Shown piece by piece: positions 1 to 64,000 of a stretch of 64,000 bases of DNA. The notes under the pieces are model-generated. The model worked only from the letters and a program-made list of their open reading frames with translations. It did no database searches and was not told the origin of the DNA. The DNA comes from Moniliella sp. 'wahieum' (Eukaryota). The position numbers were made by a program, and so were the translations under genes. Each line of letters opens with the position of its first letter. Within the stretch, counting starts at the first letter, position 1. Location: assembly GCA_003971905.1 (NCBI GenBank), contig RSEE01000079.1, forward strand, positions 124,001-188,000. The letters are read 5' to 3'.

Positions 1-500
1 GAGGTTAAACGTACGTTAAACGTTGAACGTTACACGTTAATCGAGTTAATCGATAAATCGATCGATAATCGATAATCGATAGTCGGGGACATGGTGACAT
101 GCGTCACCGGCCACCCCGTCCCATGTCGCACGTCCCACAGTGTATACCCTGTCACATGTGTCACACACCCAGCCTCTCAGGAAGGTATAGGAACTCCAGC
201 ACCCCAACTACAAACACCGCTACCCCACGCCCCGCCCGCCCCACCCTGCCCCGCCGCTTCAGCTACGTCTGTTGCCCACAATGAGTACGAGTACTGAGTT
301 ATAGTCGCCACAAACAGTCCAGCTTCCAACGTTTAACGAACGACGTACAACGTACCAATCGCGGCCAACAGATCCTGTGTGCATCAGATTCATCAGATCC
401 CACAAAAGCACGCGTCACGCGTCACGCGTCACGCACGCGAAAGCGTCACATGTCACATATGTCACCGGTGTATGTGCACATGTGTTGTTCAACATGTCAA
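1..500. repeat. Dense cluster of 7-bp-phased palindromic micro-arrays
   Basis: AACGTT-G-AACGTT (19-31), ATCGAT-A-ATCGAT-A-ATCGAT (61-80), ACGCGT-C x3 (410-430), AAGCGT-C-ACATGT-C-ACATAT (441-460). Confidence 0.9.
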
Positions 501-3500
501 CACGACGGGCATCGACAAAATTTCTGCCTCCAAGCGCGACGGGCCTCGCACCTGTGTGAGAAGTATGTCAACAGCTGGCCAAGTCCTGCAGGACTGATGT
601 ACTGATACTGGAGTATACTTATTACCTGAGTATATAGAGGCGGCTGAGGACCTTCCTGTTTTACGATACCGCGCAGAGTACTACTCCGAAGTACGAGTCT
701 TACTCTCCAAGTGCTCGATGCTCTCACTCTTACGTGCGTTCTAGAGATACCCCGTACATTATCGAAACCCTACACCATAACCCGCAGGCCGCATCACACT
801 CTACAACGTCACATACACCAACAGCAAGTACACCAAACGGCCCTACGTAGTAGGTATAGCATAGAGAAGAATAGCCGCTCTCTCTTCTCCACCCCGTGCT
901 GCTAATCGTTCCATAGTGTTTACCGTTTACCGTTTACTGATCACCAGTCTTACAGCGCATTGCGCACAGCTAGCTCTGCACTGTGGTAGTTGAGTGTATC
1001 GAAAGGTTAAACGTTGAACGGATTAAACAGGGGAGTTGCTCCGACATGAGATTTACGTTGGGGGATTGGCCTTATAGAGCTTAGACATTAGAGGGCTTAG
1101 AGCTTGGGATTTAATATTAGGTCGTAGAAGGCCTTAGGGCTTAGACTTAGGACTTAGGCCCTTGGAGAGAGACACTTCAGGGGGGGTGATGCAGGCGATG
1201 CTGGTAGTAATGGGTAATACCCCTAGGGAGACCTCCACACCTCGATCAGCAAACCAGAGGGGGGGCAGCTATGGTGGACAGATGTAGGTTCTCGTTCCCT
1301 TAAGTGCGGAGGTCATTTTTTCGCGAGAGGGGACGCTGCGGACGACGGATTAAACGATGAACTTATTGCTCTGATCGGCAATTTACACAGTAGTGACTAT
1401 ATAGTGGCCGGTGACCGTGACCAAAGAAGTGTGGGAGGCGAGTGGAAGTGGTGGGGATGAAGCTTGAACTTGAAGCTTGAAGATGCAATCTTAATCAGGG
1501 GGAGGCAGCCCAGAGGCGCCAACGAGGAGGGGCGGAGCAGAGGCGAGCCCGGCCAATGCAATCTCATATCGATCATGTCATCTCCTCTCTCTGAGTAGTT
1601 GTTGAGCTCTCAGCCGCAGGCTTATGTGTCTCCCGTCGTCCCTCCCGCATGACATCCCACACGGTATAATAGTTCAACTGTGTCGACGAGGCCCCATGGT
1701 TCTGGCGTTGCGCGGGTCCAGTTCTCCGTCGCTGCAAAAAGTTTTTCTAGGCAATTATAATCCTTCGTTTGTCCCGCCGCCCCGGCTGATGCACCAGGTG
1801 GCGCACCTCACAAAAGCGGCAATCTAGACACATATGCCCCGCGTTGCCCCCAGGTTTCCCATCTAGCATACATAGCACGACGCGAGTGGGATTAAGATCT
1901 GTTGACTGTGATCCTCCGGCTCCCAGTCGGTAGACCAGGTTCGCCTCGGTTCCATCGGCTTCCACGCTGGTGCCCTAGCGTGTCACTGTCCCTGTGCCCT
2001 GCACTCTCTCCTGTGTGACTCACTGGCCCTGTGCCTAGTCCAGCCTCCTATATAGATGCCTCTGTACCCAGACCCAACTCTGGCTCCAATCGATCACCTT
2101 CTCCTCATCCTTCTGCCGTCCGGCTCCCTAGGCTAACAAGATCTAAGATGTGTATCATCCTAGCTCTCATTTTCTGTGTCCACCCTATTACCCCCCCCAC
2201 AAACAACAATCACATGTCGTCGCATGTCACATGTCACACAGGGGGAACTAAGTATGCTGGATGGTCTGTTCGATCTGAAGCTTGAAGACACTAGAAGAAT
2301 GTAGCCAGTAGCTAGTAACGAGTAACACTTGAGACGTGTCGACCAGGATCTCGCTGTCGACAGGCTACTTGATGTGTATACTATCGGGGAACTTCAGGGC
2401 GGTTTTCTCCTATCCACATGAGAACACAGACACAGCATAGAGCCCCCCCGATGCATGTGATAGCAGGGCAGCGTCCCTGTTTGGGGGCTGTGGGGGCACA
2501 GAGAGACGTGAGTAGTGACTAGCCTGCGACGCGTGTGTTGCCCATGAGTACTGTGTGTGAGTACAGAGTATAGGAAGTATGCAACACTATAAGCGCAAGC
2601 CCCCCCCGCGCGACAGCAACCTTTACCATCACATATGTAGTGTCAGAAAATGTGACCACACACCATCACAACCACGGCTGGGGAGGAGAGGGAACACTTT
2701 GGATCATATCTTGGAGTGCAACAGGCAGCCCATGTGCATCCTCATCAGGTGCATCAGGCATCAGACCTCTGGGAGAAAAGATGGTGGAGCTGCGCGTACG
2801 AGACGTGGCAGGAGACATGGGTTGCATGGGGTAGGGGCCACAGCACAAGAGACATGGCCCAAGCGCGGCGGAATGCTACCCGGCCATCGTTGGGTCCAGT
2901 CTTCTGGTGCGGCCACAGTCTGCTGCTGCAACGCTCGAAGGCGGAGCTTGCAGAGAGATGCATGATGCATGATGTGTGACATGTGATCCATGATGCGCTC
3001 GATGGCCAGCCACACATTTAAGCTTTCCGAGTTGCGCATCTGCTGTTCCTGCTCCACGCACTGCCCCCGTGCTGCGCCGAAGCCGTTGAGCACCGGGCAC
3101 TGAGTCCCTGCGTACCTGAGTATTGCATACTGGTCGATGATCGAATATCTCCAGGGCGTGCCTCTGCACAAGAACGCACCCCACCGAAAGGCCTTTGGGT
3201 GCTGAACAGTGATTCCGCCGCCTCCGCCCTGGGGTGGCGCCGGCATCTTCGACACCATCGGGGCCGGTCATGGACATCAGTACTCAGTCCTCGATCTTCC
3301 CCACACCGGCCTCACTGCATCCAACACCCTTCCCCACCAACCGGACATTTGAGCCTGTAGGTTTTAACGTTTAACATTTACCGGTTACCATTTACGAACC
3401 GCTGGGCGGCTGACGCAGGGCGGAGGCGGTGCGGACGCTGGTGAGACGCACTAAAGGCCGCGTGCACATAGGTGCCAATGCCCAATCTGCAAGTAAGCCG

Positions 3501-6521: not shown

Positions 6522-7048
6522 TCGAGTCTCTTTGTTTCATATTCTTGTTGCCTATCAATATGTGCTTGTCACGTTAAATTCCCCTTTTGCACAACTTTTC
6601 TGTGCTTTTCGACATTCCCCCGCTATGAATGAAGCTTCATTGCCACTCCGTGTATTGGCTGCTTCGGCTTATAAGGTGTACACCATGTGCCTGGCATTAT
6701 AGCTGTCATGCATGTCATGGTTTCAAGAATTGTATATAGTTACCAGTTCAGGTGAAGCGTTCACTTGAACTGCTTGAAACTCGCTTTAAGTGAGCATCTA
6801 TAGTTCTAAGTAGTCTCACGGCAGGATTTACGCTTTACTACTAGTTACTCCAAATAATTCGTCACGCTCATGTTTCCGTTGGCCTTGCGTTTTGTATGAC
6901 AGTTGCTTTGCGAAGAGCGCTGATCTGACGCACTGACGTCTGATACCCATGCAAGGTCCATGCGTTTGCATCCCGTGCTCCCCCGACCGAGTTCATCTTC
7001 CTTAGTATGGCACCGGCTTTTCTCATCGAGACTACTCCGTTCAGTCCG

Positions 7049-8850: not shown

Positions 8851-9209
8851 TGTGGAGGAGATGGTGGCGGTCACCGTGAGCTCTTAATGTGCGGTTCCGC
8901 TTTCACTTGGAGCGTGAATTGACAAGCCGATTAAGGTTGTGCGCTCGGATAGATTAGACAGGCGGATTGCGACTGCAACAATGGAGACTGAGGTCAATGG
9001 TGAGATCGGTGAGATCTGACAGTAAAGGAGTCCTCGATCCAATTGCTCCTGTTTGGGCTATGGGCGCCGCCACTGTCCTCTCCCTTTCTTCGCTAGCGCA
9101 TCAACGGCTTCCCTCCCTGTGTCTCCTATGCTCGCTCCGATCTGCTATACACATCACAGTAAAGAGGCAATGTGACGTCCAAGTGACTGTTCCAATCCGC
9201 AACCTGAGC

Positions 9210-13613: not shown

Positions 13614-13646
13614 GCTTCAAGCTTCAAGCTTCAAGCTTCACTAGTC
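13614..13646. repeat. 7-bp-phased array AAGCTT-C x3 followed by ACTAGT-C
   Basis: Read directly at 13619-13646. Confidence 0.9.
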
Positions 13647-14250: not shown

Positions 14251-15753
14251 AACACCTACCGCGGCTTCATCTTCCTCCCAGTATATGCCTATATACTTGG
14301 ACACTCTATGTTTAGCCAGATCAACATGTCCACATGACTCGAGCTGTGGCGCCACAGGGTCTGACGTTTGCAATAGAGGGACGAAGAAGAAGAGAAGAAA
14401 GAAGGGTTGTGAGAAGATAGTAGGGGCGTATTCTATGGAAACGGTGGATGCAATGAGTGGTTGGGAAATTTACTATGTTAACTTGACGCATTTTCGGCAA
14501 TGAATTGATAGCCCAATCAGAAGCGAACCCATCCTCATGCCCTTTGAAGTGTTGTCGTCGAAGGACTAACCTGCTGCTTGTAAAACTCCTAATGCCAAAC
14601 ACTTTTTTTCAGGCCACCAAAACCTCACTCACTCCCAGATGCCTCATGGATATTGGCTGTGCTATGCCATAAAGCATCGAAGCTGGCGCAAGTCATGGCT
14701 GGGATGTCGCTGACGAAGAGCCCACAGTTTAGAAGCGCACCGCAAGAGTAGAAGCGCACCGCACAGAAAATCCACTTTCTGTCTCCCCACTACAGTCTTC
14801 CTATACGGGCACAGTATAGCACCTTAGTCCGAGGGCGGTACTTTCGGTCAAGGCTCAGCTTATATTCATCTTTCAGGGGCCTTTGACGTTCTGATCGGTG
14901 CGCGGCCAGAGGCAAGCATGCCCTGATGGGCTTGTGATGGCATCCCTGCATCGCCCCAGCGTTATCCTAATTCAGATCAGACGTCTCGATGGACCAGCAG
15001 AGCCTTAGTCATATATAAAGCTAGTACGAACCCATTAACATGTAACGTGTAATAACAGAGAGAAGAGCTTTTTCTCATCGCAGCTGCTCTCTCCTTCGTC
15101 TTTCAGGCACCACATGGATGGGATTCCTCACGCGTCGGGGGGCGTAGTGCCCCACATATCTGGTAGGGACTGCCGACTGGCTTGTTGCAGCTTTCAGTTT
15201 CCCGCTCGAAGCTGCACCACCGATAGAGAACAGAGGATGGGATAGGGATCGGCCATCGCTATTCCATCTGCTTCCAACGCGGGGAACCTGGGTGCAGCTG
15301 GCGTGTGACATGTGATGCGCCGATGCACACTGCGCGTGTGCCGGTGTGCCCGGCCGGCTCCACGCTGGGCCGCACTGCGCCCAACGTGACAGCAAAGCAA
15401 ACACTGGTCCTGTGCGTCGCTTGCACCGAGATCGGCAGCGCACGCAGGCTAGCCGGGCGCGTCGGCTCGCACAGCGCCCGCGTACCTGCGCCCCTCCCCC
15501 GCGCGCCCAGCGGGGCTAAGCGCCAAGTGCTAGGCGCCAGGTGCTAGCCGCCCATCCCAATTTGGCGGTGGAAAAACGGGGAAGTGGGTGAGCTTGAAGC
15601 TTGAGCCGAGGTGGAGGCGCTCAGACCGGAGGCTCAGGCCTCAAGCGCCAGCGAGGGTGGTTTTGCTGCTGAGAGGTGGGGATCATTGGTGGGGCCAGGA
15701 AGGAGGCTACTGCTTGGGTGATACCTTCTCTGCTTTCCTTCCACCCGCTCGCC

Positions 15754-16831: not shown

Positions 16832-18123
16832 TCAGTGGTAGTACGTCGACCTCATGGCTTTTTCTGGGACCGATTCTGTACCGGGCGTGCAGCTCTTCGA
16901 CTAAGCCGTTCGGGTCCTGTTTGATCCGCAATTCCGATGGATTCCCTCCCCTCCTTTGCCTTTCTGTCTCGCTCTCACATAAGTGGACTGGGCTGGGTTA
17001 TATGCCATAGGCAACTTGCGTCATACAGTTATTCGATGCTACCAGTCATAGTCCCACTGTAGGTGGAGATCAGTTGCCAGCTTATCAACGTCCACGTCGC
17101 AACCATTTGTCCTTTGTTCTGCACCCGGGACTGGGACGCGGACTCCAGCTCGACAAAAGTGACGGACAATACCTGTGATAGTCTGATTCTGATTGGTTCT
17201 GCTCATCACTAGCCCTTCCTCTTCCTCTTCGCCTTGCTTTTCCCACAACAGGTCCAAGGACTTGATTTCGGGCTTCTGTCTATGGCGAGAACACAGAGGC
17301 AGCATGAAGGTCCATTCAGCCCTAAACAGCTACAGCTCGTATCTATGGTGATCACCACGGTTTCAATTCGGGAAAAAGAAAGACCCAAACAAACAAATGG
17401 AGCAAAAGAAATGCCTCTTGGCCGAATCGAACGACCGATCTTCCATTACTAGTGAGATGCTTTACCACTGAGCCAAAGAGGCGGATTGCTGTAAGATGGT
17501 GGGATTGGGAGTTGATGCGGGGAATCGATAACCTGCGTGGCTGCGGGTGCGTCCAAACGGCACGGCAACCAGCAGCAGCGTCTTCGGACGGAGATTGTGA
17601 CATGTGGGCACGAGAATGGAAAATGTATGTCCGAGGGAGACGAGTAGGACGGATCTCCATGTTGACGTTCAAACGGTGAACGCCCACTAGGTGCTGTGTG
17701 CCAAGCCGCATCACGCGTCAGGCCTCAGGAAGGAACCGCTGCGTTCTAGAAGGCACATTGAGTTTCTTACCCGACTCGTAGGATGCCCGCGCAATGCGGT
17801 GGGGAGTGCCAGAGATGGGTAAGCATGCCGGAGGGGGGCTGTGACAGACGTGTGACATGTGACAGGCCATGTCCGCCAGTCGGGGGGCGGTCGGTCCTGT
17901 TTGTTTGTGGCAAAGAGTCCTCCCAGAGCCTAGATCAGCGTTCGATGGCCTGACGTCCGACAGGCCACATGGTGGGCCACTTGCGCTTGAACTTTCACTT
18001 GAACCGCTTGGCGCTTCTGTGCTGAAGTGCGCCCAGCCGGAGCCTCTGTCGCCGCCGCCGCCCGCTCTCTCCGCCGCCTCGACCGCCGCTCTTCCTGCCG
18101 CCTCCCTCGCGCTGGCCGTCGCC

Positions 18124-20892
18124 ATGGCCATGCCCATGCCCACTGCGCTCTCCGCCAACACGCGACGCGCCCAGCGCGGCGCAACCGCCACCCCTACCCC
18201 CGCTGCCCCTCCTGCCCCGCCAGCATCCTGGCCCAGGCCCCCACCCGCCGTGCCACCGCCCAGCCCCACGACGCCCACGACCTCAGCAGCTCTGTCTGGA
18301 CGCCTGCCCCTCGTCCTGCCGTCACCCGCCCGCCGCCGCCGCCCCCCGCCCCCGCATGCAGTTGGGCCCGTATGTCCTGCTCCACACCCTCGGCGAAGGC
18401 CAGTTTGGCAAAGTCAAGCTCGGCCTCCGCATCCCCCAGGCCGACGTGGTTGCCATCAAGCTCATCAAGCGTGCCCCCGCCGAGGTGGGCCAGGATTCGT
18501 GCCGCCATTCCCGCAAGCGAAGAGTCCAAATGGGAGCGCGTCCGCAGGGAAACAAGCATCCTGCGTCGTCTCCACCACCCCAACATTATTGCCCTGATCG
18601 AGATCATTACGAGCGAGCGGTGGCTAGGCATCGTGCTGGAGTACGCTTCGGGCGGGGAACTGTTCGACTACATTCTCGCTCACCAGTTCCTGCCTGAGCG
18701 CGAGGCCCGCCGCATCTTTGCCCAGCTCGTGTCGGCAGTGTGGTACATGCATGCCAAGGGGTCGTGCTCCGCGACCTTAAACTCGAAACGCCCTCCTCGA
18801 CCGTCACCGCAACATCCTCATCACCGACTTTGGCTTTGCTGGGATTTTAGGCCCAAGCGCCCTGATGGCCACGTCCTGTGGCTCTCCCTGCTATGCCGCC
18901 CCGGAACTCGTGCTCTCCGACCAGCCTTACCTTGCCCCTCGGTCGACGTTTGGTCCAGCGGCGTGATTCTGTACGCTATGCTCTCCGGCTTCCTGCCCTT
19001 TGACGACGACCCTGCCAACCCCGAAAGCCGTAACATCCACCAACTTTACCGTTACATCACACCACCCTCTCAACTTGCTGACCACGTGCCTGCGGCGCCG
19101 CGCACCTTGCTGGCGGGTATGCTCGCCCCGGACCCGGCCAAACGCATGGGCTTGGACCAGGTCCGCGCCCACCGCTGGCTCGAGCCCTACCAGCAACTCT
19201 TCCGCTTTGGCGTGCCGGAACTTGAACATGCCGCCTTGGCACAACAGGTCAAGCGCCAAGAACATTCCCGCACTCTGTGCGTCCCGGCCCGCCTTCCCAC
19301 CCTCCGCCGACCCATCGGGACCCGCGTTGGTCCGGCAAGAATCTGAGCTGGTCCCATCCACGTCTCCTCCCCGCGGAAGCGAGGAGAATGTCCTTTCTCT
19401 ACCTACCGTTTCGCCTTGCCTGTTGCACCCTCTACGTCCAACGCCCTTGCCCGTGTCACGTCGACTTCGACCGCGCCTCCGAGGACGGCAAGTCCGACGG
19501 TGACTCCCACACGTGCGTCCAGCACGTCGGACGGGACTTCGGCTGCGACGCTAGTGCCAGCGCCCCGCGGTACGACGATGTGCGCAGTTCTGCCTCGACA
19601 CTTCCGGCGCTTGTGCTACGGGGTTCGAGCCTTCGTCGCTGGGTCGATCTAGTCTCGCACTACGCCCCCCCTCCGACCTTTCTTCCGTTACTGTCCCCTC
19701 GAGTTCGGTACCTTTTTCCATCCAACCTCTTGTCCACCCCACCTCTCCCCCCGGCAACTCTCGACCCGCACCACCTCCCAGCCCCGCCCTTCCTCTCTCC
19801 GCTCTCCTCAGCGTCCCTCTTCCGTCTGCGCCACGGCTCCCAGCCTTCCTCCTACGCACTCAGACGCTCCCGCCCCGCTTCGGATGCGATGGACATGTGC
19901 GTTCCCCCACGGAACGCTGTTACGCTCATGCCCAATTTCCGACCGAGCGAACCTGTGGTGGCTACGCCCACGCAGAGCGGTAGCCGGACGCGGTTCCAAC
20001 AGCCGCCAGAGCGTGGTGGACGTTGGCGTCGGGCTACCGTCATGCCCTCTTCGTCGGTTCCGACCGGGTCTGGGTTAGGGTCTGGGTCTGGGTCCGGGTC
20101 TACGCACGCACGGCGGAAGCAAGAAGAGGGTCGTCCCAAGTCCCGGTTCCCCCTTGACAAACTGTTTTCCCTTTTCCACCGCCCTTCTCCCACTTTGCCG
20201 GCGAGGCTGCGAGCAGCGGGGCCAGTGCCAGTGCCAGTGCCAGAGCTAGTGCCAGAGCCAGTGCCAGAGCCAGTGCCAGAGCCAGTGCCAAACCAGTACC
20301 AAAGCCAGGGGATGGGGATGGGGATGGAAGTGGGAATAAGAATGGGGGTGGGAACGAAGTGCAGGTGGAGGTGGGACTATGGGGCGGGCCGGTCCGGCCA
20401 AATCGTCCGGCCGGAAACTATTCCGTTTGTTTGGCTCGCACGGGTCGAAGCACGAAGCGCGATCTAGTTCGCAGCAGATGCTGGCAGCGGCGGCGGCGGA
20501 TCGGCAGTTACGGATCCCCGGTCTGGCACCTCGGCGGGCGGCGCGACGTCGAGGGAAGAGGTGCGTGTGCACGAGGGCGAGTTGCGGGAGGAAGCGTTAA
20601 CGTCGTTACCGTTGGCGCAAGTTGTGGACCGGGTGACGGTGGCGCTGAGCGAGATGGCAGCCGAGACGAATGTACCGGAGCCGTATGTGGGGGCGTGTCG
20701 GTGGCGCGACCCATATGCGCGGGGCAGACGGCGCTGGTGGTGTTTTCGGTCGAGGTGACCCGGGTGGCACGTATTCCTGGTCTTTGGAGCGTCGATCTGC
20801 GCTTCTTGGCCGGCCAGACGGACGCGTTTGTCGGCTCTCAGGTGTTTTATGTCCGGTGCGATTTGGGCTCGGGCCCTGCAGTTGGCTCATGA
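18124..20892 (+). CDS. CAMK-group Ser/Thr kinase, Kin4/Ppk1-like, with a KA1-like C-terminal domain
   Basis: [87 protein letters not shown]. The C-terminal [20 protein letters not shown] resembles KA1. Several indels. Confidence 0.9.
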
Positions 20893-21303: not shown

Positions 21304-22282
21304 TTAGATCTGCGGGGGCGGAGGCGGAGCAACGGGAGCAGGGCCAGTGGGCAACAACGAGCCCCAAGGGGACGAGGCAACCGTGGGTTCGTACAAGCCC
21401 CGCGGGAGCGACCGGTCCAGGACCAGTGCTCCACGTCCTCCGCCGCGGACATCGTACGATACTCGCCGTCCAGCCCCAGCCGAGGGACGGGGCGAAGCAG
21501 GTGCTAGGTTGAGGGGGGTGGAAGGTGGCACGGGAGTGGTACTGGTGCTACCGGCACCGCGTCCACCACATGCTCGTACGATGGCACAGGCGTCGTTTCG
21601 TATTGCCCAAACCGTTGTTCCCATGCATGTTGCGCCCCCAACGCCGCTTGTTCCTGCTGATGCGTGGCTAAAGCATCTTGGGCTTCCATGTAGCGCCGCA
21701 GCTGCTCCTTCTCTGTCAGTGCTGGACCCGCTGAGCTTCCCGGGACCGGGGCAGAAGCTGAAGCCGAGGGCAACGAAGCAGCAGCAGCAGCAGCAGCGAC
21801 ATCCTCAGGTAACGGTGGCGCCATACCACCTTGCTGCTGTGCCACCTGGTCCCGCGCTTCCAGGAAGCGCCGTAACTGCTCCTTCTCTGTCAGTGCTGGG
21901 CCCGCTGAGCTTCCCGGGGCCGGGGCAGAAGCTGAAGCCGAGGGCAAGGAAACAGCAGCAGCGACATCTTCGGGTAAAGGCGGGGCCATACCACCTTGCT
22001 GCTGCGCCACCTGGTCCCGTGCCTCGAGGAAGCGCCGTAGCTGCTCCTTCGGTCAGTGCTGGGCCCGCTGAGCTTCCCGGGGCCGGGGCAGAAGCTGAAG
22101 CCGAGGGCAAGGAAACAGCAGCAGCGACATCTTCGGGTAAAGGCGGGGCCATACCACCTTGCTGCTGCGCCACCTGGTCCCGTGCCTCGAGGAAGCGCCG
22201 TAGCTGCTCCTTCTCTGTCAGTGCAGGTCCCGCTGAGCTTCCGGGAACCGGGGCCGGGCGGAAGCTGAAGCCGAGGGCAACG

Positions 22283-22326
<44 letters not shown>

Positions 22327-22655: not shown

Positions 22656-22716
<61 letters not shown>

Positions 22717-41394: not shown

Positions 41395-43034
41395 AAGGCA
41401 CAGCGCCAGTGTGACGTCCTCGGCAAGGGTGCGCCGTCAGCCGGCTGCCTGTTGGGGCATGCTTTTCCAATCCACACTGCCGCATCAGCACGTAGTCCCG
41501 CACCAGGCCGCCCCCCTCAGACCTCAGGCTGCGGCCTCACGCGGGACGCGGGACCCCGTGAGCGTGGCTTTGGATGCTAGCGACGGATGAGATCGATGAT
41601 CCATGCCGGCTCCTGGGGCTGGAGCACTCAGCTGCTGCCGCTCGCTGGAGCATGACAGACAGGGGGATCACCAATTAGTGCTCGTGCCTGAGGCAGGGGG
41701 GACAGGCACAGAAGGGCAGATGAGAGACAAGGAACCTTAGGTCGATGATCGATGACCGATGATGTGATCATTCGGTGGTCGATGACAGTGTCACGCGCGA
41801 CGCGTGATAGCGATCGATGACGCTGGGTGACATGCATGTGACATGTCACATGTCACATGTCACTAGCCACTGTGTTACAAAACCTTAATACCTAGAACGA
41901 TAGAGGGACTCCCAGATCCCGTTCCACCTTTCTCCTTCGCCATCCCGTCCGCCTTCAAGAATTTCAAGCGCCATACTTCTCTTCTCGAGGATTGAGACCG
42001 CCCTCGTCCAACCTCCATTGCGACGCTCTCTTGGCAAGCAGGCCCTTGTTGACGAAGTAAGCACGAACACCATGACACGGATGCGTGGCCACTCTCTCAC
42101 GGTGTCAGAGTATGTCAGTGGTCATCCAGTGCTCTCAGACCATCATATTCCGTACCACTCCTATATGGCCCGCCTATACTCCCAGCCTGGGTGGGGGTTG
42201 AGGCTCTGAGAGGCCTGAGATATATGCATTGAACATTGACGATCGCCTATAGTCCTGGGCAAATGCCACGTCAGCAAGTCGCAGGATGACGGTGTGTGTA
42301 ACGGTGTGGCCTCCCGGGCGATGACACCTCGCCCGACGGGGGCACAAAGGGGAGCCTGCCTCTGGCTCGTCAGGCAAGGGGACCAGTGTAGGCCCGAGCA
42401 CGAGCTTCGTACCCAAGAGGCGTCCTCCCTCCGCCTTCCTAGCGATAGGTTCCTAAGCTGAGTCTGGAGAAGGCGGCGCGGAGGGTGGACGTAGGACAAG
42501 ACGATTGGTCGCTTGCCTCCATGCATTCTTAGTACAGAGCGGGTCTTATATAGGCAGGCAAAGGCCCGCAAGTCGTACAATAGGCAAGCGGCTGACTGTG
42601 GTCTGTTGGAGACCACGCGGCTGATGGCTCCCGCCGATCTGCACGCGCGGAACATCGGCGATCGAACTGATTAGAAGCCAAGAGTGAACGATAAGCAGCG
42701 GCGGCGCCAACGGAAATATTTCCGGTGGCTGTGCTGCGCATCGCCCCGTGACAGTGTGGGAAGAGACACAGAGTTGACGAAAAGTGGTTAAGCACGTAGC
42801 GCTGCCGCCAAGTCCCAGCCAAGTTGTTGTGCTGGACCCCATCGTAGGTCAAGCCAGTGGCTGCATCCGAAATGCTGTTGGGGACGACCGGGCACTTGGC
42901 CTTCACGCAATTGTGCTGGACGTTGACTGTGGGCCAAAGAGGGTGGTGTGGATCCGCGAAGCAGGAACGTACGCAGTGCGTCGGGCCGAGGGCAACGGTC
43001 GCTCCAGTTCCGCATGCGTGGCCTACGCCGTCAC
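41395..43034 (-). mobile_element. Repeat copy 2: transposase-like relic (segments A-x-B) contiguous with segment C
   Basis: ORF 42529-43080 contains VNVQHNCVKAKCPV..GVQHNN..RYVLNHF. End-like cactgtgttacaaaacc starts at 41868. Contains 462 bp that copy 1 lacks. Confidence 0.6.
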
Positions 43035-43196
43035 ATGGGTTCGGCTGTAGCGTTTCCCTGTCCAGCCTAAGCTCTGTCATGATAGTATGGATGCAGTATA
43101 GAGATTCATCATATATTCATCTGAAGAATAATATATCGCGGGTCCTTTTTTCCACGTTGTGCACACACCACAATGGTATAGGTGTGTTGAAGAGAG

Positions 43197-44942
43197 CTAG
43201 CATGTTGTCGGGGAGGAAAAGAGGCTGAGCCGCACTGGCCTTCGAAAAATTCGGAGCGGACCTTGAAATCGGGAGCGGGCCCAGAAAGTCCACACCCCCA
43301 ACCCCAAGACGGCGACCACTCCAATTACGGCGCAAACAAAATTCTCCGTCGCCGATTTGAGAGGATAGACGGATGGAAAGCAAAACAAGACCGAGGTCAG
43401 GAGCAGATAGCAAAGGCAGACACGTTGACGGCTGGTCCCAACGCCCCAGAGACCAGCGGCGCTCAACGCCTCGCTCATTCAACATTATTCCCCCAGAAGA
43501 GCATGGCAAAACGCAAGGCATGTAGGACATCTGAAGAAGAACGACCGAGGCACTTTGGATCGCGGGAAGGATTGTTGATTAGGCAAAAGATGAGACAGCC
43601 AAAGACCAACATAGCCAAAACAGGTTGAAAAGAGTGGCCCAGACCGGCCCCTCATACACTCGACTCCGTCTTTCCCAAAACCGAGGGAAATTGCGATCGT
43701 TCGCAAACGCTTGGATCATCCTGCTCGTAGTGATCATCAACGCTGGCAAAGTGAAGAAGAGCGTTCCAAATGCCACGACGCCCAAAAATATCGTCCCACC
43801 CAGTGCGAAGGGATGGTAACACACAATGAGAAACCCTCCTCCCTGCGCCTCCACCACGCTGGTGGGGTCGGTGATCGCCCCTAATACTGCGATCAACAGG
43901 ATGAAGATGTTAACCCCCCAATGACACATGAAGACACCATGGCCAATGGCGCGTACATAGAGGGCCGAGGGATCTCAGTAACCAAATGGGCGGCCCCATC
44001 TAGAAGCAGAAAGGGAAAGAGTGTGTCAGTGCCTAAGTTTTGGCATGCATGAGAGGAGATCAACGCACCAGCTCCGACTAAGGAGTATTGTGCTTGCATC
44101 AGCCCCATGATCCAAGCTAACCCATCTGGCCAGCCCGTTTCGTTCAGAAATGTGGCAAAAATCCACTCGCCATTGCGCAAGCGCGAGTTGGAGCAGGCGA
44201 GAAGAGTGACAAAGATGACGAGAAGCCAAGGATGCTCCAGCAAAGCGATACCTTATTGAAGGTGTTGAGAATGCGGACACCAAAGATAGTAAAAAAGTAG
44301 ACCAAAGGATGAGAAATACGTAGACGACAAAGATGGCCAGTGAGTGGGCACCCAATCTGGATGATATAGAGTCACCGCAGACGCCACAAATGCCCTGCCA
44401 CACGTGGCGCGCTAGAACTAAGAGCAATCCATCCGCACAATGTGGTCCAACCCACCATTGAGGTCAGAAAACGCGTCCAGAGCGTGTTGCGGTGCAATGC
44501 AAATGTCCAACTGTAATGGGCACCTTGGGTGGGCCAAACGGACCTTGCATCGAAAATGGTACAGTATGTCAGCGCCCCTCATTGGCTGTAGTGATGGGGT
44601 GAACTTGACAAGGCATAAGAGAATATGCGTACAGAGTTCAGAGAGGGATGCAGCGTTGGCTGTTGCGCACTGTCGCAGCTAAAGTGCCCCACAATACGCC
44701 AAACGGGTCCTCCAGAGTTAAGGCCAATGTAGATCGAACCAGCGTTGGCGCTCCAAGAATTGAGGATGGCATAGGCGATCCCAAGCAAACCCAACATGGA
44801 GAAATGTTGGTAATTGCCTTCCGCGGCCACATCAGCAGCCGCACCCAGGTCGATAGGAATGAGCTCGATTGCTGGTTTTGTATCCCTTGCCAGTGTTCTT
44901 ACGTCCTCAACAGAGGGCCCCAGCTTTGATGGCTACCGCCAT
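43197..44942 (-). CDS. APC-superfamily permease, choline/GABA transporter (Hnm1/Uga4-like)
   Basis: FSMLGLLGIAYAILNSW..GLNSGGPV, NETGWPDGLAWIMGL, DGAAHLVTEIPRP..APLAM, TSRMIQAFA.DRNFP, WARSRFQGP. Many indels and at least one intron. Confidence 0.88.
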
Positions 44943-47900
44943 CGAGTGACTTCGTTTCGACTTGCGCCTTCTCACGTCCAGAGGGTGGCTCATGATTGTT
45001 GGAGTGGCGATTCGAGGAGAGAGAGGATAGCGGTCATGTGAGAGCAGGGCCAACTCTTTTTATACGATGTGCAACTCGCGCATTCTCCGCCCCTGTCGAT
45101 TCAGCTTTCAGCCCTACTCGCACTAAAACCCCCCAGTCGCGAGCGTGTTGGGCTTATCAATTACCACACCTTCCAAAGGAGTACGTTGTAATAGGTACAG
45201 GAACACGGGTACAGCTGCTCAGTACTCAGTGGCGCGTCTTTTCAAGCTTTAGCCGAAGGCTTGATGAGGCTGAGCCTCAGTGCTAACTAATGAAGCAAGT
45301 GAAGCAAATGACATGTGAGTTGACCCGGCGACACTATAGCGGCACAGCCAGGTGAAGCTGAAGTGTGGCGCTTGGCAGCTCCGGAGATACAGGTATTGAT
45401 CCGAAAAAACAAATAAGTTGAAAATTGACACTGCGAGCGCCGCTGCCGCGCTATCATCACACATACAGGCATCACCGTCATGCGTCACGAGTACCCCAGT
45501 ACCTAGTAAGTAGTAGCCTCGTGACGCGAGTGACGCGTGACCTGTGACCATGATCATCGAGAACAACCGAATAAATATAATAAACAATCTCTTATCTACC
45601 ATGGGACAAGAAACGCCGCGTGCCAGGTTTCGCTCAGCGCTCACTGATTATCCGGCGTTTCGGCTGGACGTCGGGTACTAGGTACTGCTGCTACCTTATA
45701 TATAACTCGTAGTGTTTTTTTCACCGTGTCGTAACGTGTGGCTGTGGAGGACGAGAGAAATGAGGGGAAGGTGGGGTTTTTGTATGTTCAAAGGAGAAAA
45801 GATTCCCAACAAAGAAAGGGTAGGGAGGGGAGAGTCGGAGACAAGAAGGAATGACGACGAAATGCTAGCGCTAATGCCGCGACTGAGGTATTTTGCAACC
45901 ACGCCAACAGTGGTATATGTATAAACAACATCCGCGTTTAACGAACCCTCTGTGACGTGTCCGAGCGCTCAGCAGGCTGAGCGCTGCAAATTCAAAGGGA
46001 GCCGTGTGACAGCTGTGCTCTTTTCGTGATGCATTAAATGAGCGAGGAGACACGGCGTAGGGGGAGATGTCAGCGCATCATGCATGCAGCTGATCACGCA
46101 TCACGCATCGCGCTGTTCTACCCGACTCTCCCCTATGTTCTGCCCTAACGGGCTCCTCTTTTGGAATAGATCCATCACCTCCCTCTCTCTTCTCTCTCCG
46201 TAGGCCTTTGTCCTCGTTTAACAGGAGATAGGGGAGAGAGACCGATGTATAGAGCTGTGTTCGAGCATCATGTCAAAATGCACGAGGAAGTGATATTTGG
46301 AATAGCCTGTTTGTAATTTTTTTCGTCACTCTCTGTTTGACCTCGGAGATCTCAACGTCGCTCAACTACAGATCTCATCGTCCCTCAAGTACAAAGTTGA
46401 GCGGCTGAGGACTGTGGTATCAATGTGACATCTGGTCTGGAAGGGAAAATCACAACCGGAGGGAAAAGTCGGAGTGTTTTGGTGTGTGAGTAAGTTTTTT
46501 CACAGCTTCTCTCAGATCTCAGTGTTCAACGCCCCTCCATATATACAGGCCCAACAGCGTCAACACCTCTCTTCCGTCAGTTCAACAACTGCTTATAAGG
46601 GGATGGCATCAATCAATACAACCTTTGGCCATCAAACGTTCAATAAGAGGCCACCGTCGTCGCGCGGAGTTATAGCCCGCTTGGTTCCCATCGTCAATGA
46701 ATCCGCAGTAGAGAGCAAAGTCACTCCTCTTAGTTGCCTGCTTGGTACTTTCCGTCCTTTGGCTCTCACAGCTTTCCACCTCTCAGCTGTCGCTTAGTGT
46801 TTCGGCATTCCTGAATTCAACCTATCGAGCTTTCAGCCCCACAGACTTCAGTCTCCCCCGGCTTCGATATATCGGTTCCCGCTTCAGACCAAATTCGGGT
46901 AGTTTATATTCATCACGGACCCCCTTTTAAAGTCTGGTATTTCACCAGTCATATCCCTGTTGTGAGTGCACACATAAGTGTACGATGTGGAAGGGCTAGT
47001 GTCATGCATATCCCGCTGGCTTCGGGGAGAGAGCAGTGCTACCAGGTAACCATGTGACCAGCAGTCATATACATAGTCCTCGATTAAGAGAATGCATTCG
47101 GTGGCGTCTTCAGTGAGACCAGAGGGGAAGCTTTGAAGATAGGGAGATAGGGGAGCACCTTAACACCACGATGTAATTCCTGGCACCTATTAGGTCCATG
47201 GTTGCAGCTCCTTCCACAACAATCTTGACAACCTTGGAATCATTTGCGGCACTGCTCTCGCCGTACTTCCTTGCTAACTTAGGGTCACAAGCTTTGAATC
47301 TCGTCGATATCGCTCGTTATCAAGGAGATTTCCAAATGGAAAAGGTCCGGGGCGGTGCCGTGACCCGACTTTTACGTGACCTCAGAGGAATAGTGCCTTG
47401 GATCTCTTACGAGGCGCTCCGTTTATCTCCGGATGCTGAGCCCCGCATGTCGTAGACATCTCACAGCCCAACACACGTCAGTCCTGTTAGACTAGCGAGA
47501 GAGAGCCAGTCGACACCTTATCCATGCTGCGGATATGATCCGCGGCCCGCCATGGTCGCATGGGCTCATGAGCGGTACGATGCTTTGCCCATTATTGCGT
47601 CCAGTCTTGGAAGAAACCTTCCTGCTGTGCTCGGCTATGCAGCGTTAGCGCCTTTGAGAGCATGGCTGTGCATTAGTCTTTACCTCCCTGGAAAGTGCCC
47701 CGCATTGTGTCTATACCTGTCATGGGGCACTTGAGGCCTGGTTTCTTCTGTTGTATATACAAGCCATGTCTAAGGTTTGTTGCTAGCTCTGGTCCTTGTC
47801 GATCATCCTGTCTTTGGTCTCCCGACTACCCATTCCTCCCTTGCCCTTCCACATCCTACCACCCTTACGCTTACGAATTTACGACTTACGTCGAGTTCGC

Positions 47901-48907
47901 TGTAAGCCGCGGTTACTCTCATCAGTACTCAGTAGCACTTGCTCTTCATCTTTAGGACTCTGTCTGTCCCCGCCTAATACTACACCGGAGTAACTTCGGA
48001 GCTCCTGGACCCCTTCAACTGGTCTACGACCTACGTACGCGGCTCCTACCTCCGAGAGTCTGAGCTGCGGCCTTTGCACGCAGGCAGCCGCAAACTACTA
48101 TAGAGGGTCTCTCCATCGCCTCTTGGATCTTGACCCGCTCGGTTCCACCAGGATCTGAAGCAGGACCTAATGTACGAGACACCGATTGGCCTGTCCAAAT
48201 TTAACGTTTATACCCCTAAACTACAGGGGAGGTCCCTCCACCTCGGGACCCCCCTCCCCATGACAGGTTCCCCCCGTAGAGACGAGATTTCTGGTACATC
48301 GTTCTATTGTCCCGCGCGAAGCGCTAATATAGGATTCCCTCTTAGTAAAAATCTCACCGGTCGTCTCCTCTTCGCTATAGTTTGAGCTATAAAAACCAAT
48401 CGGGTTTAGGGATGCTGTTCTACATCCCCGCCCAGCGAAATACATTTCCGTTCCTCTGGGTGTGGATTTGCATCTTAAGTTGTCAATCAATGTATTTTGG
48501 CTCAGAACCATAGCACTACAAGACACGAGAACTCTTGTTGATCCTATGTTGCCATAGGATGTAGCTCTTCTCACCGTGTAGCTTGCCTTACCGAGCTACG
48601 TTCTCATGCATCATGCCAACGATACAGCCAGCACAGGGCACGTGAAATGCCTGTGCCATTGAACTACAGCATCTAGGGGTGTGAAACCATGGACTGAATA
48701 AGGTGGGTGATCATAGCCATGATGCACTTTGGGGGGTGTCCTAGTGAAGGTACAGCCAAGGCTGCACTGCGTTGCTGTGCGGTGGGGCAAAAAAAACGCC
48801 GCGCAATGAAGGAAGAGGAAACTCAAGCTCCTTCCATCTCGCCGCATGAAGCCCAGTGCAATGCCAAGAAGGGTGGGCAAGCAGATGCATCGTTCAAGAG
48901 AAGCCAC

Positions 48908-50521: not shown

Positions 50522-52524
50522 GCTGCACGCATCGCTTTCCGGTGGGCCATGCTTCGCTCCTTGCTCTAGTGGCTCCACTCCTATGCAGGATAGAGACGCA
50601 TCTTTGTACGATTGGTTAACATCATGTTGCCTGACCTAAAAGATCCATGTGAAACGCCCACCAGAACTGATGGCCACTTCAATTAAGAGTTTTGTGTCGA
50701 GTTATCAGTTTGCAGATGAACTTGTGGTACCTTGTTGAAGAGACTTGAAGCTTGAAGCTAGAGACCTGTATAGGTGTGAAGTGGGTGGTAGATTGACCGA
50801 ATTCCTCCCCTATAATAGTTGTTTTGGGCAAATGCCTTGTTACCAGATTTGACGGGCCGAGTGACGTTGCGTCGTCATACGTCCAAGTGGGCTTGAGTGC
50901 ATTCCGGCAATTTGGCCTGCTCGCCATCTGCCTGCTCAGGCAGAGGTAGTATGTCGTACTCCCATCTTGAGGTGAATCTGTGATCCAGAGAGGCGACAGA
51001 TCATCAACTTTCTTAACATCGGAATGATCCTTACATGAAATTGAAAACTGCAATTGATGTATCTGACCCCTTGGCGCAGCGGTAGCGCGTGAGATTCCAG
51101 TTGTTGGCATCCTCAAGGTCATCCGTTCAAATCGGGTAGGGGTCATTTTTTGCTTCACTGAGATCGATGATTTCTTTTCGTTACCCCCCGTTTAAACTAT
51201 GAAGGCAGCAAGAGCGTACATAGCTATAGCGCTTTATAGCGCTTGGGGGGTGGGGGGGGGGGCACAATAGGTGCACATGTAGAAGAGGTCGGAGAAATGG
51301 AGGAGGGCGATGCGGCCAGAAGGAACGGCAGGAAACGGCTTAGCGGGCTGTCCGCAGGGGAGAAGACTATATTGCAGCGAGTGGGTTACCTGCCACTCGC
51401 CAATCCTGAAGCTTGAAGCCTAAAGCGAGGAGTAATCTTGAGCAACGTGGATGCAGGGTGGAAGGGCGTATGGTACGGCCAGTACCCAGTGGCTGGTTTG
51501 AATCCATCTCTTTTGCTTCGGCACATGCAACCCAAGAAACGGGGTCGACGTATTTGTCCCGGTGGTGTTGGTCACCGATAACGATATTGCTGACCGGCCG
51601 GTGGTGGCGCCTGGGCAAACCAGGGCCTCGCAGAGTGTCTATGTCAGTCCTTCACGTATGACTCACCCCCTGCAGTGCACTCAACTTGAATAGTGGCTAG
51701 TCAGCTAGTCGTCAGCTAGTCACCACCACCGGCATTCCATGTCCCCGTTCCATTCCATGCTGGCGCAGGCTGGCGCCCAAGTGCTCACGCCGCAAGCAGA
51801 GCGCCACCAGGCATGGCACATGCGATCTGAGATCTGAGACGGAGGCGCCGGAAGCCCCTGGTCTGTCTCGTCTCAGGTGTCGTGCTGCGTTGCAGGACAT
51901 CATGCATCATGCAGCGTGCATCGAGCATCCTGCTTCGTCACGCGTCACTAGTCACTGGCAGGAGGCGGGCACAGGGAGGCAGACATGCTGTCCGAAAAAG
52001 AACACTTTGACGGCGATCGATGACACTCGCGCCGTGCCCAGCACCCCGTCCGCAGTACCTGCCAGGGGCAGGCCAGCCAGGCCAAGCCAAGCCAAGCCAT
52101 CCCCAAACAGGCAAGCCCGGGTCCCCGGCCCAACTAACCGCGAACGCCTACCCCCGCGCACTGAGTACACCCTCCACAATCCAGACGCGGGAACAGATCC
52201 CACAGCACACAGGCCCTCTGCGCCCTGCTTTGTTCTGCACACACTACTCCACTGCGCCACGCTGGCATCCCTACTGTCGCATACGCCCAGTGTGCCCGCC
52301 CAGCCCCTACACTTGTAGGTCCATATTTCTCCGCCGTGGTATAAAGTTGCCCCCTTTCCCCTCTTCCCTGCGTCTCCCCACCACCACCACCCGCATACCT
52401 TCACAGAGCAGGCTCTGTCCCCTGATTCCCACTAGCCGGTCTAGTCCTTGCCCTACCCTCCCTCCTCAACCTTACGACACCTCCGCTCGCCACCTTCTCT
52501 CTCTCCACCCTATCCATATTCACC

Positions 52525-57720: not shown

Positions 57721-57823
57721 GTCGGAGCAACAGCTAATCGGCCCCTTTCAAGTACAAGGTTGCGGCGCAGAACACAGTAGACCCTTTTGGCTCAAAAGGG
57801 GCGGCCAAGTATACTGCCCCACC

Positions 57824-57922
57824 CTGCATGATGCATGATGCATGATGCGAAATGCTCAGGCTCCCACCTGAGAAAGGGGTGATCGCTGTGATCGATGATC
57901 GCTGATCTGCGATCGATGATCC
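57824..57922. repeat. 7-bp-phased arrays (ATGCAT-G)n and (ATCGAT-G)-type
   Basis: ATGCAT at 57831 and 57838; ATCGAT-G-ATCGCT-G-ATCTGC-G-ATCGAT at 57891-57917. Confidence 0.85.
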
Positions 57923-59192: not shown

Positions 59193-59888
59193 CGTTTACC
59201 GCCAAGATCACGTTTGACGCCAAGATGACCTCCATTCTCTCTTGTTCATCGTCTGTGATGGGCCGAGCTTTTTGCTACGGCTCGTGGCCCACTGGACCCT
59301 CTCTTCCCCCTCTTCGACCCAGAACAGTGTACCGCCTGCCCATTACCCACCGTGTATTCTTCCCTTGCATTCGCCATGCGACGATTCCTCCATTGATAAT
59401 TGATGTGATCATCTTTCGCGGGCCACTCAAAAAGACGAAGGACGAGCCTCGAAAAGTAGTTACAGCAAGCATGGTAGGTTGGTGTAGTGTATGCGTACTA
59501 TTCAAACCTACTGTGCATACCCTTTTCAGGGATGACGAGTCTGGGCGTGGGCGGGCCGGAGCTTAGGGCAGAAAGTGAGTGAGGGGAATGCCCAATTCCA
59601 TCGACAGATGCGACGGGGAAAACGTGTACCAATAGGAAATCTAGTCGCTCTCATGATCGACATGATCATCGCCTCGTGGCAGGCTGTTCCATCAGACCGA
59701 CCAACCATATCTCGTCTCATCCCGGCGCTACGAATGATATGCTACATCCACATTTTCCTTGCGTTTGCTTTCCAATTTGCACGACCGCTCTCGTACGTCC
59801 CTCGGGGCAGGTGGGATCAGATGGATGGGGTTTTATATGCATTTTTACTCCACTGACCCAGACGGTTTCCAGTGGCATCATTTCCAAA

Positions 59889-61586: not shown

Positions 61587-64000
61587 CGTGAGATGGGTGC
61601 TGGCTGAGTACTCAGGCTGAGTACTCTGGCGAGTGCTGGGTTAGGTGAGTGTGCTGAGGATGGCGCTGTGTGCTTGCCGGTTGCGCAACGAGGCAGAGCG
61701 TATTTAAGCTGTACCAGCGGGGATGGGCCGGTGGCAAGTAGCAGTGCGTCTCAGCACACCCGTCTGTTGGCCACCCTCGGGGCTAGAGGCAAGAGCCCGT
61801 CGGAAGAGTTCGACAGTGTGTGGTTTCTGGGGTTTGGTACTGGCAGGCACGCTGGCTGCCGGTCGAACCTGTGGGGTGCATTATGTGAGACGGAATGTGT
61901 GACAACACCATTATGATATGCATGGCCCGGCCAGATCAATTTGGTAAGTATGCAGTATGTACGGTACGAAAAAAACGATAATCGATAAGATCGAACATCG
62001 ATACAGCGAGCAACAGGCCATTCCAAACCCACTGGCGACCGCCGCTCTCGATCGAGAGGAGGATTATCGATGTATCGATGCCTCACTATCATCGATCGCC
62101 AGCACTCATCGTCGGGCCCATTATACAGCCAATGCACGCCAATACTCCCGGCCATCGCGAACCGAGGTGAGTACACTGAGTAACTGAGTACTGAGTAATA
62201 CTCAGACCGAGTACTGAGTCGGGTGTGCTTGGGTGTGCTGTCTGCAACTAAGTACCACTCTAGGTGGCCAGTGACGTTATGACGGCGGTGAGTGACGTGT
62301 GGTGTGTGACATGTGATGGCGGCGAAAGCATCCAAGGGGCCCCAGATGAGTTTGGCAAAGTTCTCCCGTGGTGGGCGGACGAAATGGGCGCACCGAGCGG
62401 CCGCGTGTGCCTGCTTGCGAAGCAGTGCATCTTTCCACATGCCTCACTAGGCAATGGCCAGGCCCATCTGTCGCCCCCGCCCCCCTATCTCACCGGTCAC
62501 CGGCCACCCCCAGACGGATCGAGCCAAGCTCTGCGTGTAGCGCGTAGCACCCTAGTACCCGGTGTCCGGGGTACCGCCTTTCCTGGGCCGTAGGCCTTCT
62601 CACCTGCGACTGAGATTTGGGATCTGAGTCTGAGGTCAGATCGGAGACAGCTCGAGCTAGTCGTTGGCGCTTTCGGTATGCACGTTACGCGTTACATGTT
62701 ACAGCGACTGCTGGCTAGCTTGAGCTTGACGCGTGACTAGGACTAAACTGGTATGGGTGACACGGTGGCCCAGCGCTCAGCGCTGCAGGGCAGGGGCGTG
62801 TAGCGCGTGCAGGGACAGATGCTCAGCCTCGTGGGCTCCATGTATCCTGCGGGTGTGTCGCAGTGGTGACCCTGAGACCTTGTGACTTCCATTCCCAAAC
62901 GGGGGTTTGTGGTCCGTGCCCTCCGCTTTTATCTTCCGTCCCATGTCTGGGCGCCTCCATCGTCCGCACACCACTCGCCATATCGATTCGAACTTCGCAC
63001 AGTAAGGTGCCGGGGTCTCCCTCCCAAACCGCGTCCCAGCCCCAAGGAGCCCAGGGACCATAGGCAAACCTATGGGGTGTCACGGGGGCGTCGCCAGGGG
63101 GCCCGCCCTGGGGTTTTTTGGGGTACAATCCCTTAGGCGACGGTAGGTCGACTCACGGTAGTTTCGGGCTTGGGCTGGTTGGTGTATCCGAGCGGAGCTA
63201 GGGACGAGGAGAGGCCTTTGGTGGGGCGGCTGCACGTGTGGCAAGGCTGCGTCTGCACCGGCTTGGGCCGTAGTAACGTGTCTGAAGCCTCCGGGACTTA
63301 GAGACGGGAGGAGACAGCGGCGGACAAACACTGCCTCAACTGAGACTGGAAATCGATGCGGCCAGAGGAGGGCTCGCGCGACAGGACTGACGAATGGCTG
63401 AGGACGAGATTGGAGGAGATGTCGGACGCTAACAAAAGTAGGCTGCCTGTACTGGATCAATCGGCTGGAAAACGGGCAGGAGTCGCACAGGATAGGCGAG
63501 AGGATAGACAAGGGGGTTGAGACGAGAATGGAAGGTGGGGGAAAAGATCCCCATCAACCAGGGGGGGTACAGGCAGGATCAAAAGGGAAACGGATACAAG
63601 AGGGTTTGTAGAAAGGAAGACATGTCAAAAGCGGGGTTGGTCGCCACAGGCGCGACCGAGAAAGGAAAAGGAAACGGGGACGGGGCGACAGTCGTCGCAA
63701 CGGCACTGGAAGCTCGGTGGCCTTATTTAGGCCGGCCGACTTGGACTTGGGCGGGGGGACTATTGTCGCACGGAGCATGGCCCTTCAGCCACGATGCTTA
63801 ATTTAGCCAACCATCATCACACTTGGTTGGCCTGCGGAGCACGCTCTACTGGGCATGTGCGGAGCAGGCGGGCCTTAGCTTCGGTCGGACCATCTCGAGT
63901 CCGCCGCAGCCCGTGACATGGGGGAGGGAATATGGAAAGAAGCATGCATGACATGTGCGACAGAGGAGATTAGTGAACAAGAACTAGGTATAGGTGCTGA

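Follow-up and report, generated by a model that had tools for sequence, protein, structure and literature searches.

Which process gave rise to the 7-bp tandem repeats centred on TNA trinucleotides that are scattered through a 64,000-bp stretch of the Moniliella sp. 'wahieum' genome (contig RSEE01000079.1, positions 124,001 to 188,000 of the forward strand; hereafter the window, with coordinates counted from its first base)? An initial annotation had tentatively ascribed them to an undescribed cut-and-repair or transposition system, in which a 5-bp sequence edged by TNA is duplicated around a 2-nt inverted copy of its own end. All 14 example strings that it quoted were found at or beside the positions given for them, several at additional sites too. 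Its fixed geometry, the specificity for TNA and period 7 and the inverted dinucleotide at the joint held up; the 5-bp duplication needed correction, and the undescribed nature of the system was not shown. We propose, with a probability of roughly 55%, that the arrays are scars of a cut-and-paste process targeting nnTNAnn, that is, transposon-type excision footprints.

The period-7 signal is strong and narrowly defined. Counting the positions at which a 5-mer reappears 7 bp on gave 393, where 100 local dinucleotide shuffles averaged 99.9 ± 14.2 (z = 20.7), and 7 was the sole strongly enriched period not divisible by 3. TNA pairs lying 7 bp apart numbered 200, against about 100 at neighbouring distances. 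When maximal exact runs of at least 12 bp were counted, homopolymer units being dropped, 180 period-7 runs were obtained, against 73.1 in shuffles. Runs whose unit is TNA plus a 4-bp palindrome accounted for 57 of them (0.92 in shuffles), those breaking this rule once for 49 (14.1), and those with two or three violations for 48 (45.7) and 26 (12.5), respectively. The entire period-7 excess consists of TNA plus 4-bp palindrome units or of units one change away. In 56 of the 180 runs, the unit was an A....T hexamer palindrome plus one base, equivalent to an odd palindrome with TNA at its centre, and palindromic units centred on ANT, CNG and GNC numbered 4, 1 and 1. Self-complementary units made up 34% of the period-7 runs (62/180, with 11% expected); they stayed near expectation at periods 4-6, 8-10, 12 and 13, and rose slightly above it, on small counts, at periods 11 (5/87, against 1.4% or about one expected) and 14 (1/85). 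A....T hexamer palindromes were enriched (274 against 164), and the T....A, C....G and G....C classes were not. At least 13 of the 16 possible A....T palindromes had been claimed to take part; 14 of the 16 A-pal4-T hexamers occurred in arrays, AAATTT and ATATAT being the missing ones. Together with the specificity for TNA and period 7, this supports the view that the geometry is constant and the sequence variable.

The spacer between the copies obeys the same rule. Among TNAzw 5-mers recurring at offset 7, the spacer was the reverse complement of zw in 36 of 51 cases, and the mirror form, xyTNA, gave 37 of 54, against just 26 of 342 for all non-TNA 5-mers; the shuffles and the other periods likewise confine the excess to TNA and period 7. 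Joints made of a 5-mer D starting with TNA, the reverse complement of its last two bases and D again numbered 73 on both strands, against 0.1 in shuffles. For the same D, spacers of 0, 1 and 4 nt gave 12, 6 and 2 joints (6.3, 1.5 and 0.0 in shuffles) and a 3-nt spacer none, and 2-nt spacers with D starting with ANT, CNG or GNC gave 2, 0 and 0. The joint thus bears the 2-nt inverted copy of the flank, resembling palindromic (P) nucleotides, that had been predicted and that is expected from a hairpinned flank.

The duplication itself, however, is 7 bp long and centred on N (xyTNAzw), rather than 5 bp long and edged by TNA. Seven loci show xyTNAzw + w'z' + xyTNAzw (primes denoting complements; a net gain of 9 bp, or +9), and in five of them P nucleotides added to a 5-bp duplication cannot account for the repeated xy. 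Such a duplication with P nucleotides at both ends was matched twice, each match being equally readable as a 7-bp duplication. In all, 11 joints of a 7-mer D, the reverse complement of its last two bases and D were found (1.2 expected); those with TNA at positions 3-5 of D are the seven +9 loci, at 36, 150, 2743, 6704, 8999, 18454 and 59652 (0.0 expected). Among period-9 16-mers, 7-mers built of one or two letters being dropped, the spacer was of P type in 7 of the 9 TNA-centred cases and in 3 of the 131 others. The common +7 form is the +9 joint minus 2 nt on the opposite side. We then scanned xyTNAzw|xyTNAzw joints, allowing 0-2 nt lost and 0-3 inverted nt added per side, with 60 shuffles as control. 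The +7 joints with one inverted dinucleotide numbered 36 to the right and 37 to the left (0.2 each in shuffles), followed by 7 +9 loci (0.0), 5 +6 joints with one inverted nt (0.5) and 3 +8 joints (0.05); the +11 joint with both palindromes was found once exactly (4-21) and once as a near match (about 41826; 0.0). Even P-type joints on both strands numbered 73 at +7 and 8 at +9. A few plain, non-palindromic 7-bp repeats are also centred on TNA (918, 1144). By contrast, +3 joints (TNATNA) numbered 33, against 41 in shuffles, and a 3-bp TNA duplication with a hairpin was rejected, the TNA-TN' joints that it predicts being absent from the scan with a 3-bp D. Duplication, 7-bp length, TNA centre, inverted dinucleotide and joint spectrum are read directly from the window.

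Flanks and run ends carry further information on how the units arose. In 84 TNA-pal4-TNA 10-mers, the two Ns were identical 70 times and complementary 5 times, the other 9 showing some different pair; this preference for an identical N is not the behaviour of a symmetric binding site. Of the 70 same-N 10-mers, 55 have an outer dinucleotide that repeats the adjacent half of the palindrome (on the right in 18, on the left in 19, on both sides in 18). Left and right forms were equally common, and the 28 oriented events had C at N 12 times and G 10 times, as a symmetric enzyme would give. Target bias was weak, limited to G at -2 (before T) and C at +2 (after A), with N tracking the background. Eleven of the 16 runs of 12 bp were in the phase of the model, reading exactly TNAzw-w'z'-TNAzw or its mirror (p = 0.001), and 16 of the 18 runs of 13 bp contained such a 12-mer (p = 0.004); a simulated null, in which a 14-bp duplication decays by one substitution, gave 0.23. 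Altogether, 34 of the 57 runs were shorter than two full units (<14 bp), with ends phase-locked to TNA. Most events thus make 12 matching bases and not two full units, which plain tandem duplication does not predict.

To place the arrays relative to genes, Pfam-supported open reading frames (ORFs), covering 16% of the window, served as reference in place of ab initio maps, since dicodon, codon and 3-periodic Markov models recovered few genes, codon bias being too weak. None of 49 array loci touched a Pfam-supported ORF (p = 2e-4). Eighteen of the 49 lay inside a crude cover of ORFs of at least 150 codons (63% of the window, a rough gene map), mostly at its edges, so that the statement that the pattern occurs almost only outside ORFs holds for the supported ORFs. 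The sole joint in a Pfam-supported ORF is a frame-keeping +9 (18454, kinase). On this crude gene map, many loci are 5' of ORFs or between divergent ORFs, and some are 3' (50744, 48604).

An inverted segmental duplication (27139-28057 against 41718-43045, about 13.7 kb apart), whose arms are 79-97% complementary in pieces, offers an internal comparison, and both of its arms hold array clusters. The left-arm cluster (27871-28039) comprises AG-TGA-CTAG-TGA-TGCA-TGA-TGCA-TGA-TG, GCATGTC x3, TCATC-GA-TCATC and TCATCGG-TCATCGA, and the right-arm cluster (41742-41863) TCGATGA x2 plus a variant unit, the near-match +11 joint (about 41826-41843) and CATGTGA/CATGTCA x4. The arms have AGTG(A/G)CTAGTGA in common and then diverge, one continuing with TGCATGA x2 and the other with CATGTGA x3; a single TCATCGA unit is a further difference between them. 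Arrays that differ between otherwise similar arms indicate that array turnover is much faster than that of the surroundings. A segment of about 455 bp, present in one arm only, has no terminal inverted repeats (TIRs) and is flanked by a 10-bp direct repeat, CACAC(T/C)GTCA; it was not taken as an element. A second inverted block (25717-25830 against 41438-41589) is not collinear with the first.

The hairpins and the way in which their ends are joined are inferred from these joints, and this applies most of all to the agent, a transposon or transposase. The element would insert through a cut staggered by 7 bp around the N of TNA, duplicating xyTNAzw. On its exit, both flanks would be sealed as exact hairpins, each of which would be opened about 2 nt off the tip, leaving its end self-complementary over 4 nt (zww'z' or y'x'xy). 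During end joining, one 4-nt end would usually be retained and the other clipped, giving xyTNA-zww'z'-TNAzw or its mirror with a net gain of 7 bp; the two mirror +7 forms should then be equally frequent, and they are. In rarer outcomes, both flanks would remain whole (+9), both palindromes would be retained (+11) or a single inverted nt would be left (+6, +8). Each scar makes a second TNA, so that further visits can extend an array; repeated visits would add identical units and build the period-7 arrays, and ordinary slippage would then alter copy number, mutated units included. Judged from their sequence, the compound arrays each go back to a single 7-mer that underwent left and right events, AGTGATG leading to 27871-27898 and CGTCACT to 51936-51956; the former array, the one quoted above for the left arm, would correspond to one left and two right events on a single 7-mer.

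Several observations weigh against excision scars. The search for transposons with TNA-centred duplications found no credible TIR element flanked by 3-, 5- or 7-bp TNA duplications within the 64-kb window, the best hits falling inside arrays or the inverted duplication, and no transposase, integrase or reverse transcriptase domain was detected in its 231 ORFs of at least 110 amino acids. For footprints the density is very high (about 80 joints, compared with 1211 TNA sites beyond the ORF cover), and most published footprint sets show a less uniform product. Fifteen of the 70 same-N 10-mers lack a flank copy; six, at 17711, 25752, 27966, 45531, 62727 and 10460, read TCACGCGTCA or TGACGCGTGA and may represent a genuine ACGCGT-type regulatory motif rather than scars. 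Two arrays end out of phase, 57825-57848 with four extra bases on the left and 409-434 starting with GCA, not TCA. Some imperfect units form exact arrays (GTTTACC x2.9, GCATGTC x3 with TCG, ATCACGC x2.4), which implies that slippage or another route also contributes. In the inverted duplication, deleting the model joints from both arms barely raised their similarity (0.722 to 0.734). No empty allele was seen, and the lone clean +7 difference between the arms sits in an existing array, so that slippage explains it equally well.

Could an enzyme act at these sites without a transposon? A host-encoded, transposon-independent cut-and-repair at intergenic TNA, by a domesticated transposase or a TNA-specific nuclease, could leave a 7-bp duplication with an inverted dinucleotide, and it would suit a window in which neither element nor transposase was found, the very high scar density, the very uniform product and a same-site recurrence that yields arrays of up to 4-5 units. 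We nevertheless hold it to be unlikely: a nuclease alone hardly yields a 7-bp duplication and hairpin-type palindromes together, and 64 kb represents only a small part of the genome. In known systems, the duplication stems from an earlier insertion (PMC5499845). As for filler derived from transposon ends, of the Tc1 type, it was rejected, the filler copying the local flank and 14 different palindromes being used. An assembly or sequencing artefact is hardly credible, given that the pattern avoids supported ORFs, is specific for TNA and occurs in diverged form in each arm of an old inverted duplication.

Two further explanations dispense with site-specific cutting, and both fit poorly. Ordinary microsatellites, made of self-complementary heptamers that fold into hairpins and lengthen through replication slippage, would account for the exact arrays of imperfect units, for the one-unit TCATCGA difference between the arms and for the array ends that misfit the cut model. 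Yet only TNA-centred palindromes are enriched, though G+C-rich ones fold better; self-complementary units show no clear excess at other periods; most runs stop short of two units in a fixed phase; and the +9, +6 and +11 joints are not slippage products. The hallmarks of slippage microsatellites, namely any unit, birth as at least two full units and ends in any phase, thus differ from what was found, and we consider this origin quite improbable. Clusters of palindromic transcription-factor sites that serve a function and are maintained in promoters by selection would agree with the many arrays 5' of ORFs or between divergent ORFs and with the ACGCGT-containing 10-mers that recur without a flank copy. 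They appear very improbable: where one motif per factor would be expected, 14 of 16 palindromes share one fixed geometry, N is copied directly and not symmetrically, the flanking dinucleotide is copied as well, arrays differ strongly between arms that are otherwise about 90% identical, and some joints are 3' of genes.

How do the proposed excision scars compare with known systems? Hairpins of the V(D)J/Transib type are usually opened at an offset of 2 nt, and Transib and RAG transposition produces 5-bp duplications; hAT elements have the target consensus nTnnnnAn, and PIF/Harbinger targets are centred on T-N-A. The even palindromes described here, made from the last two nt of the flank, are of the V(D)J/Transib kind, as an exact hairpin opened 2 nt off its tip would leave. 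Transib, one of the families named in the initial annotation, is at odds with the 7-bp duplication, and neither ends resembling recombination signal sequences or their heptamers nor a transposase were seen in the 64-kb window. Another named family, hAT, departs in its target, since T and A are one base apart here (nnTNAnn), and in its joints, five Ac-type patterns giving 0, 3, 4, 0 and 0 occurrences (chance level) against 73 of the even type; Ac-type joints therefore fit poorly. With palindromes even and the Ac type at chance, the hairpins would be exact, as in V(D)J recombination and Transib.

Flank hairpins form with hAT, Transib, RAG1 and a Mutator-like element (MULE) and are opened by host nucleases (PMC5499845). 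In Candida, Ac/Ds excision leaves short deletions or P-nucleotide palindromes, two types of footprint predominating (35 and 18 of 128); the palindromes are centred on the complement of the element-adjacent base (PMC5873905). The joints in the window resemble these footprints in keeping both flank copies, in their short palindromic insertions or small losses and in their one or two predominant products. PIF/Harbinger duplications are 3 bp long (PMC12730594), unlike the 7-bp unit found here, and TNATNA is not enriched. The same paper reports target duplications of 7 bp for hAT7 families of rust fungi (Pucciniales) and for Kyakuja in Laccaria (PMC12730594), so that 7-bp-duplicating transposons are already on record in Basidiomycota; that the system is an undescribed one is not shown. 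hAT elements generally duplicate 8 bp, which restricts the match to hAT7, and the description of hAT7 comes from Pucciniales rather than the smut lineage. Kyakuja, a KDZ element with 5'-CA..TG-3' ends and no TIRs, shares both the 7-bp duplication and a basidiomycete host; no KDZ transposase domain and no copy were detected in the window, two-base ends being too short to search. Our full-text literature search turned up no paper in which heptamer arrays centred on TNA, or footprints as dense as these, are described; one on telomeres of Microstromatales (PMC13234504) had no bearing on them.

If the arrays are excision scars, the genome holds a dense, readable record of how hairpinned ends are opened and rejoined, with one dominant and several defined minor products, and transposon scars, not slippage, can seed most short non-coding tandem repeats of a genome. 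The rule predicts the target nnTNAnn, a 7-bp duplication and exact-hairpin ends for an element not yet pointed to in this lineage; with target, duplication length and end chemistry specified, such an element should be easy to look for. Scars cluster beside genes and differ between similar copies, and may thereby steadily supply regulatory variation. A bolder version, which we regard as unlikely, would have a smut-lineage fungus carry a hitherto undescribed activity that targets TNA with a 7-bp stagger and makes exact flank hairpins in the manner of RAG, perhaps a domesticated, transposon-independent enzyme, which would scar about 1 in 15 intergenic TNA sites, be the main source of the genome's non-coding tandem repeats and continually rewrite gene-adjacent sequence.

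The loci illustrate the range of products. A compound array at the start of the window (4-85) contains the +11 joint GT-TAA-ACGT-ACGT-TAA-AC (4-21), ACGTTNA x4 (13-40), the +9 joint GTTAATC-GA-GTTAATC (36-51) and ATCGATA x3.6 (61-85). The +9 joint TGTCACA-TG-TGTCACA (150-165) shows the full 7-bp duplication, centred on TCA, plus two inverted nt. It is followed at 409-458 by CACGCGT x3.7 (409-434) and GTCACAT x2 (445-458), and at 918-937 by GTTTACC x2.9, centred on TTA, one of the exact arrays of a non-palindromic, imperfect unit mentioned above. Between 1075 and 1158, degenerate TTAG-containing heptamers (CTTAGAG, CTTAGGG, ACTTAGG) recur with period 7; they are non-palindromic and resemble telomere repeats.

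Further +9 joints are the mirror form CATCAGG-TG-CATCAGG (2743-2758, plus strand), TGTCATG-CA-TGTCATG (6704-6719), just past the last sugar transporter ORF, GGTGAGA-TC-GGTGAGA (8999-9016), which extends to two complete 9-bp units, CATCAAG-CT-CATCAAG (18454-18469), within the kinase ORF and with a length that is a multiple of 3, and CATGATC-GA-CATGATC (59652-59667). At 2957-2986, GATGCAT x2.6 runs directly into TGTGA-CA-TGTGA. The unrelated loci 2954-2983 and 27878-27907 have in common a 30-bp composite, AG(A/T)GA-TGCATGA-TGCATGA-TGTGTG(A/T)CATG, at 93% identity; homology of these two arrays was rejected, the likeness ending at the 30-bp arrays themselves, and it may reflect convergence or a preferred sequence context. 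TCAGT-AC-TCAGT (3277-3288) is followed by TTAAC-GT-TTAAC and TTACC-GG-TTACC (3363-3395), in which TTA sites in 7-bp phase are separated by differing 4-mers, and GCTTCAA x3.9 (13614-13640), or CTTCA-AG repeated, has a length of 5 + 7 x 3 plus one base. TGTGA-CA-TGTGA (15304-15315) and AGCTTGA x2 (15591-15604) lie upstream of the CDP-alcohol phosphatidyltransferase ORF, TCAGG-CC-TCAGG (17718-17729) and TGTGACA x2 (17851-17864) upstream of the kinase ORF.

Farther along, TCACATG x2, CGTCACG x2 and CATCA-TG-CATCA occupy 32141-32297. Single joints are scattered at 45218, 45530, 45631, 46510, 47922 and 48604 (45218-48616), in a 5-kb stretch (43579-48697) that has no ORF of at least 150 codons and a lower G+C content (0.50-0.51); none of its 28 ORFs of at least 60 amino acids matched Pfam, and no transposase, integrase or reverse transcriptase domain appeared among them. 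The interval 50744-51956 holds CTTGAAG x2.3 (50744), TGAAG-CT-TGAAG (51407), GATCTGA x2.3 (51824), CATCATG x2.3 (51898) and the compound CG-TCA-CGCG-TCA-CTAG-TCA-CT (51936-51956). Between the divergent eIF2A (minus) and M50B peptidase (plus) ORFs are GCATCAT x2 (57055), TGCATGA x3.4 (57825-57848) and TGATC-GA-TGATC (57889-57901). A last cluster (61976-62784) has joints at 61976, 62183, 62305, 62490 (TCACCGG x2), 62683/62691 (a TTA compound) and 62771 (CAGCGCT x2).

The window has a G+C content of 58%. Pfam matches, in pieces, identified a sugar transporter, a class-I tRNA synthetase, a CDP-alcohol phosphatidyltransferase, a protein kinase, an arrestin-like protein and a RING protein, as well as an amino-acid permease, ribosomal proteins L27e and S23, eIF2A and an M50B peptidase. 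The eIF2A ORF is 52-75% identical to its top named matches, all from Ustilaginomycotina (Violaceomyces, Tilletiaria, Tilletia, Thecaphora and Malassezia), and Agaricomycotina proteins rank lower in the match list, which places the source among basidiomycetes of the smut and Malassezia lineage. A tRNA-Thr(AGT) gene (17412-17482, minus strand) was called by both ARAGORN and Rfam, and an 83-nt tRNA-Trp(CCA) gene (51064-51146, plus strand), which may contain an intron, by ARAGORN only. Repeats of other kinds are also present. A tandem array at 21638-23131, with a unit of about 163-174 bp in about nine copies that are 60-100% alike, contains long AGC/CAG runs (up to 22 copies) and lies in overlapping long ORFs on both strands, with no Pfam match. 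In-frame repeats of coding type comprise a 36-bp unit at 32662-32809 (x4.1), an 18-bp GCTGCC-type unit at 31538-31613 (x4.2) and the 12-bp unit GCCAGTGCCAGA at 20221-20308 (x7.4).

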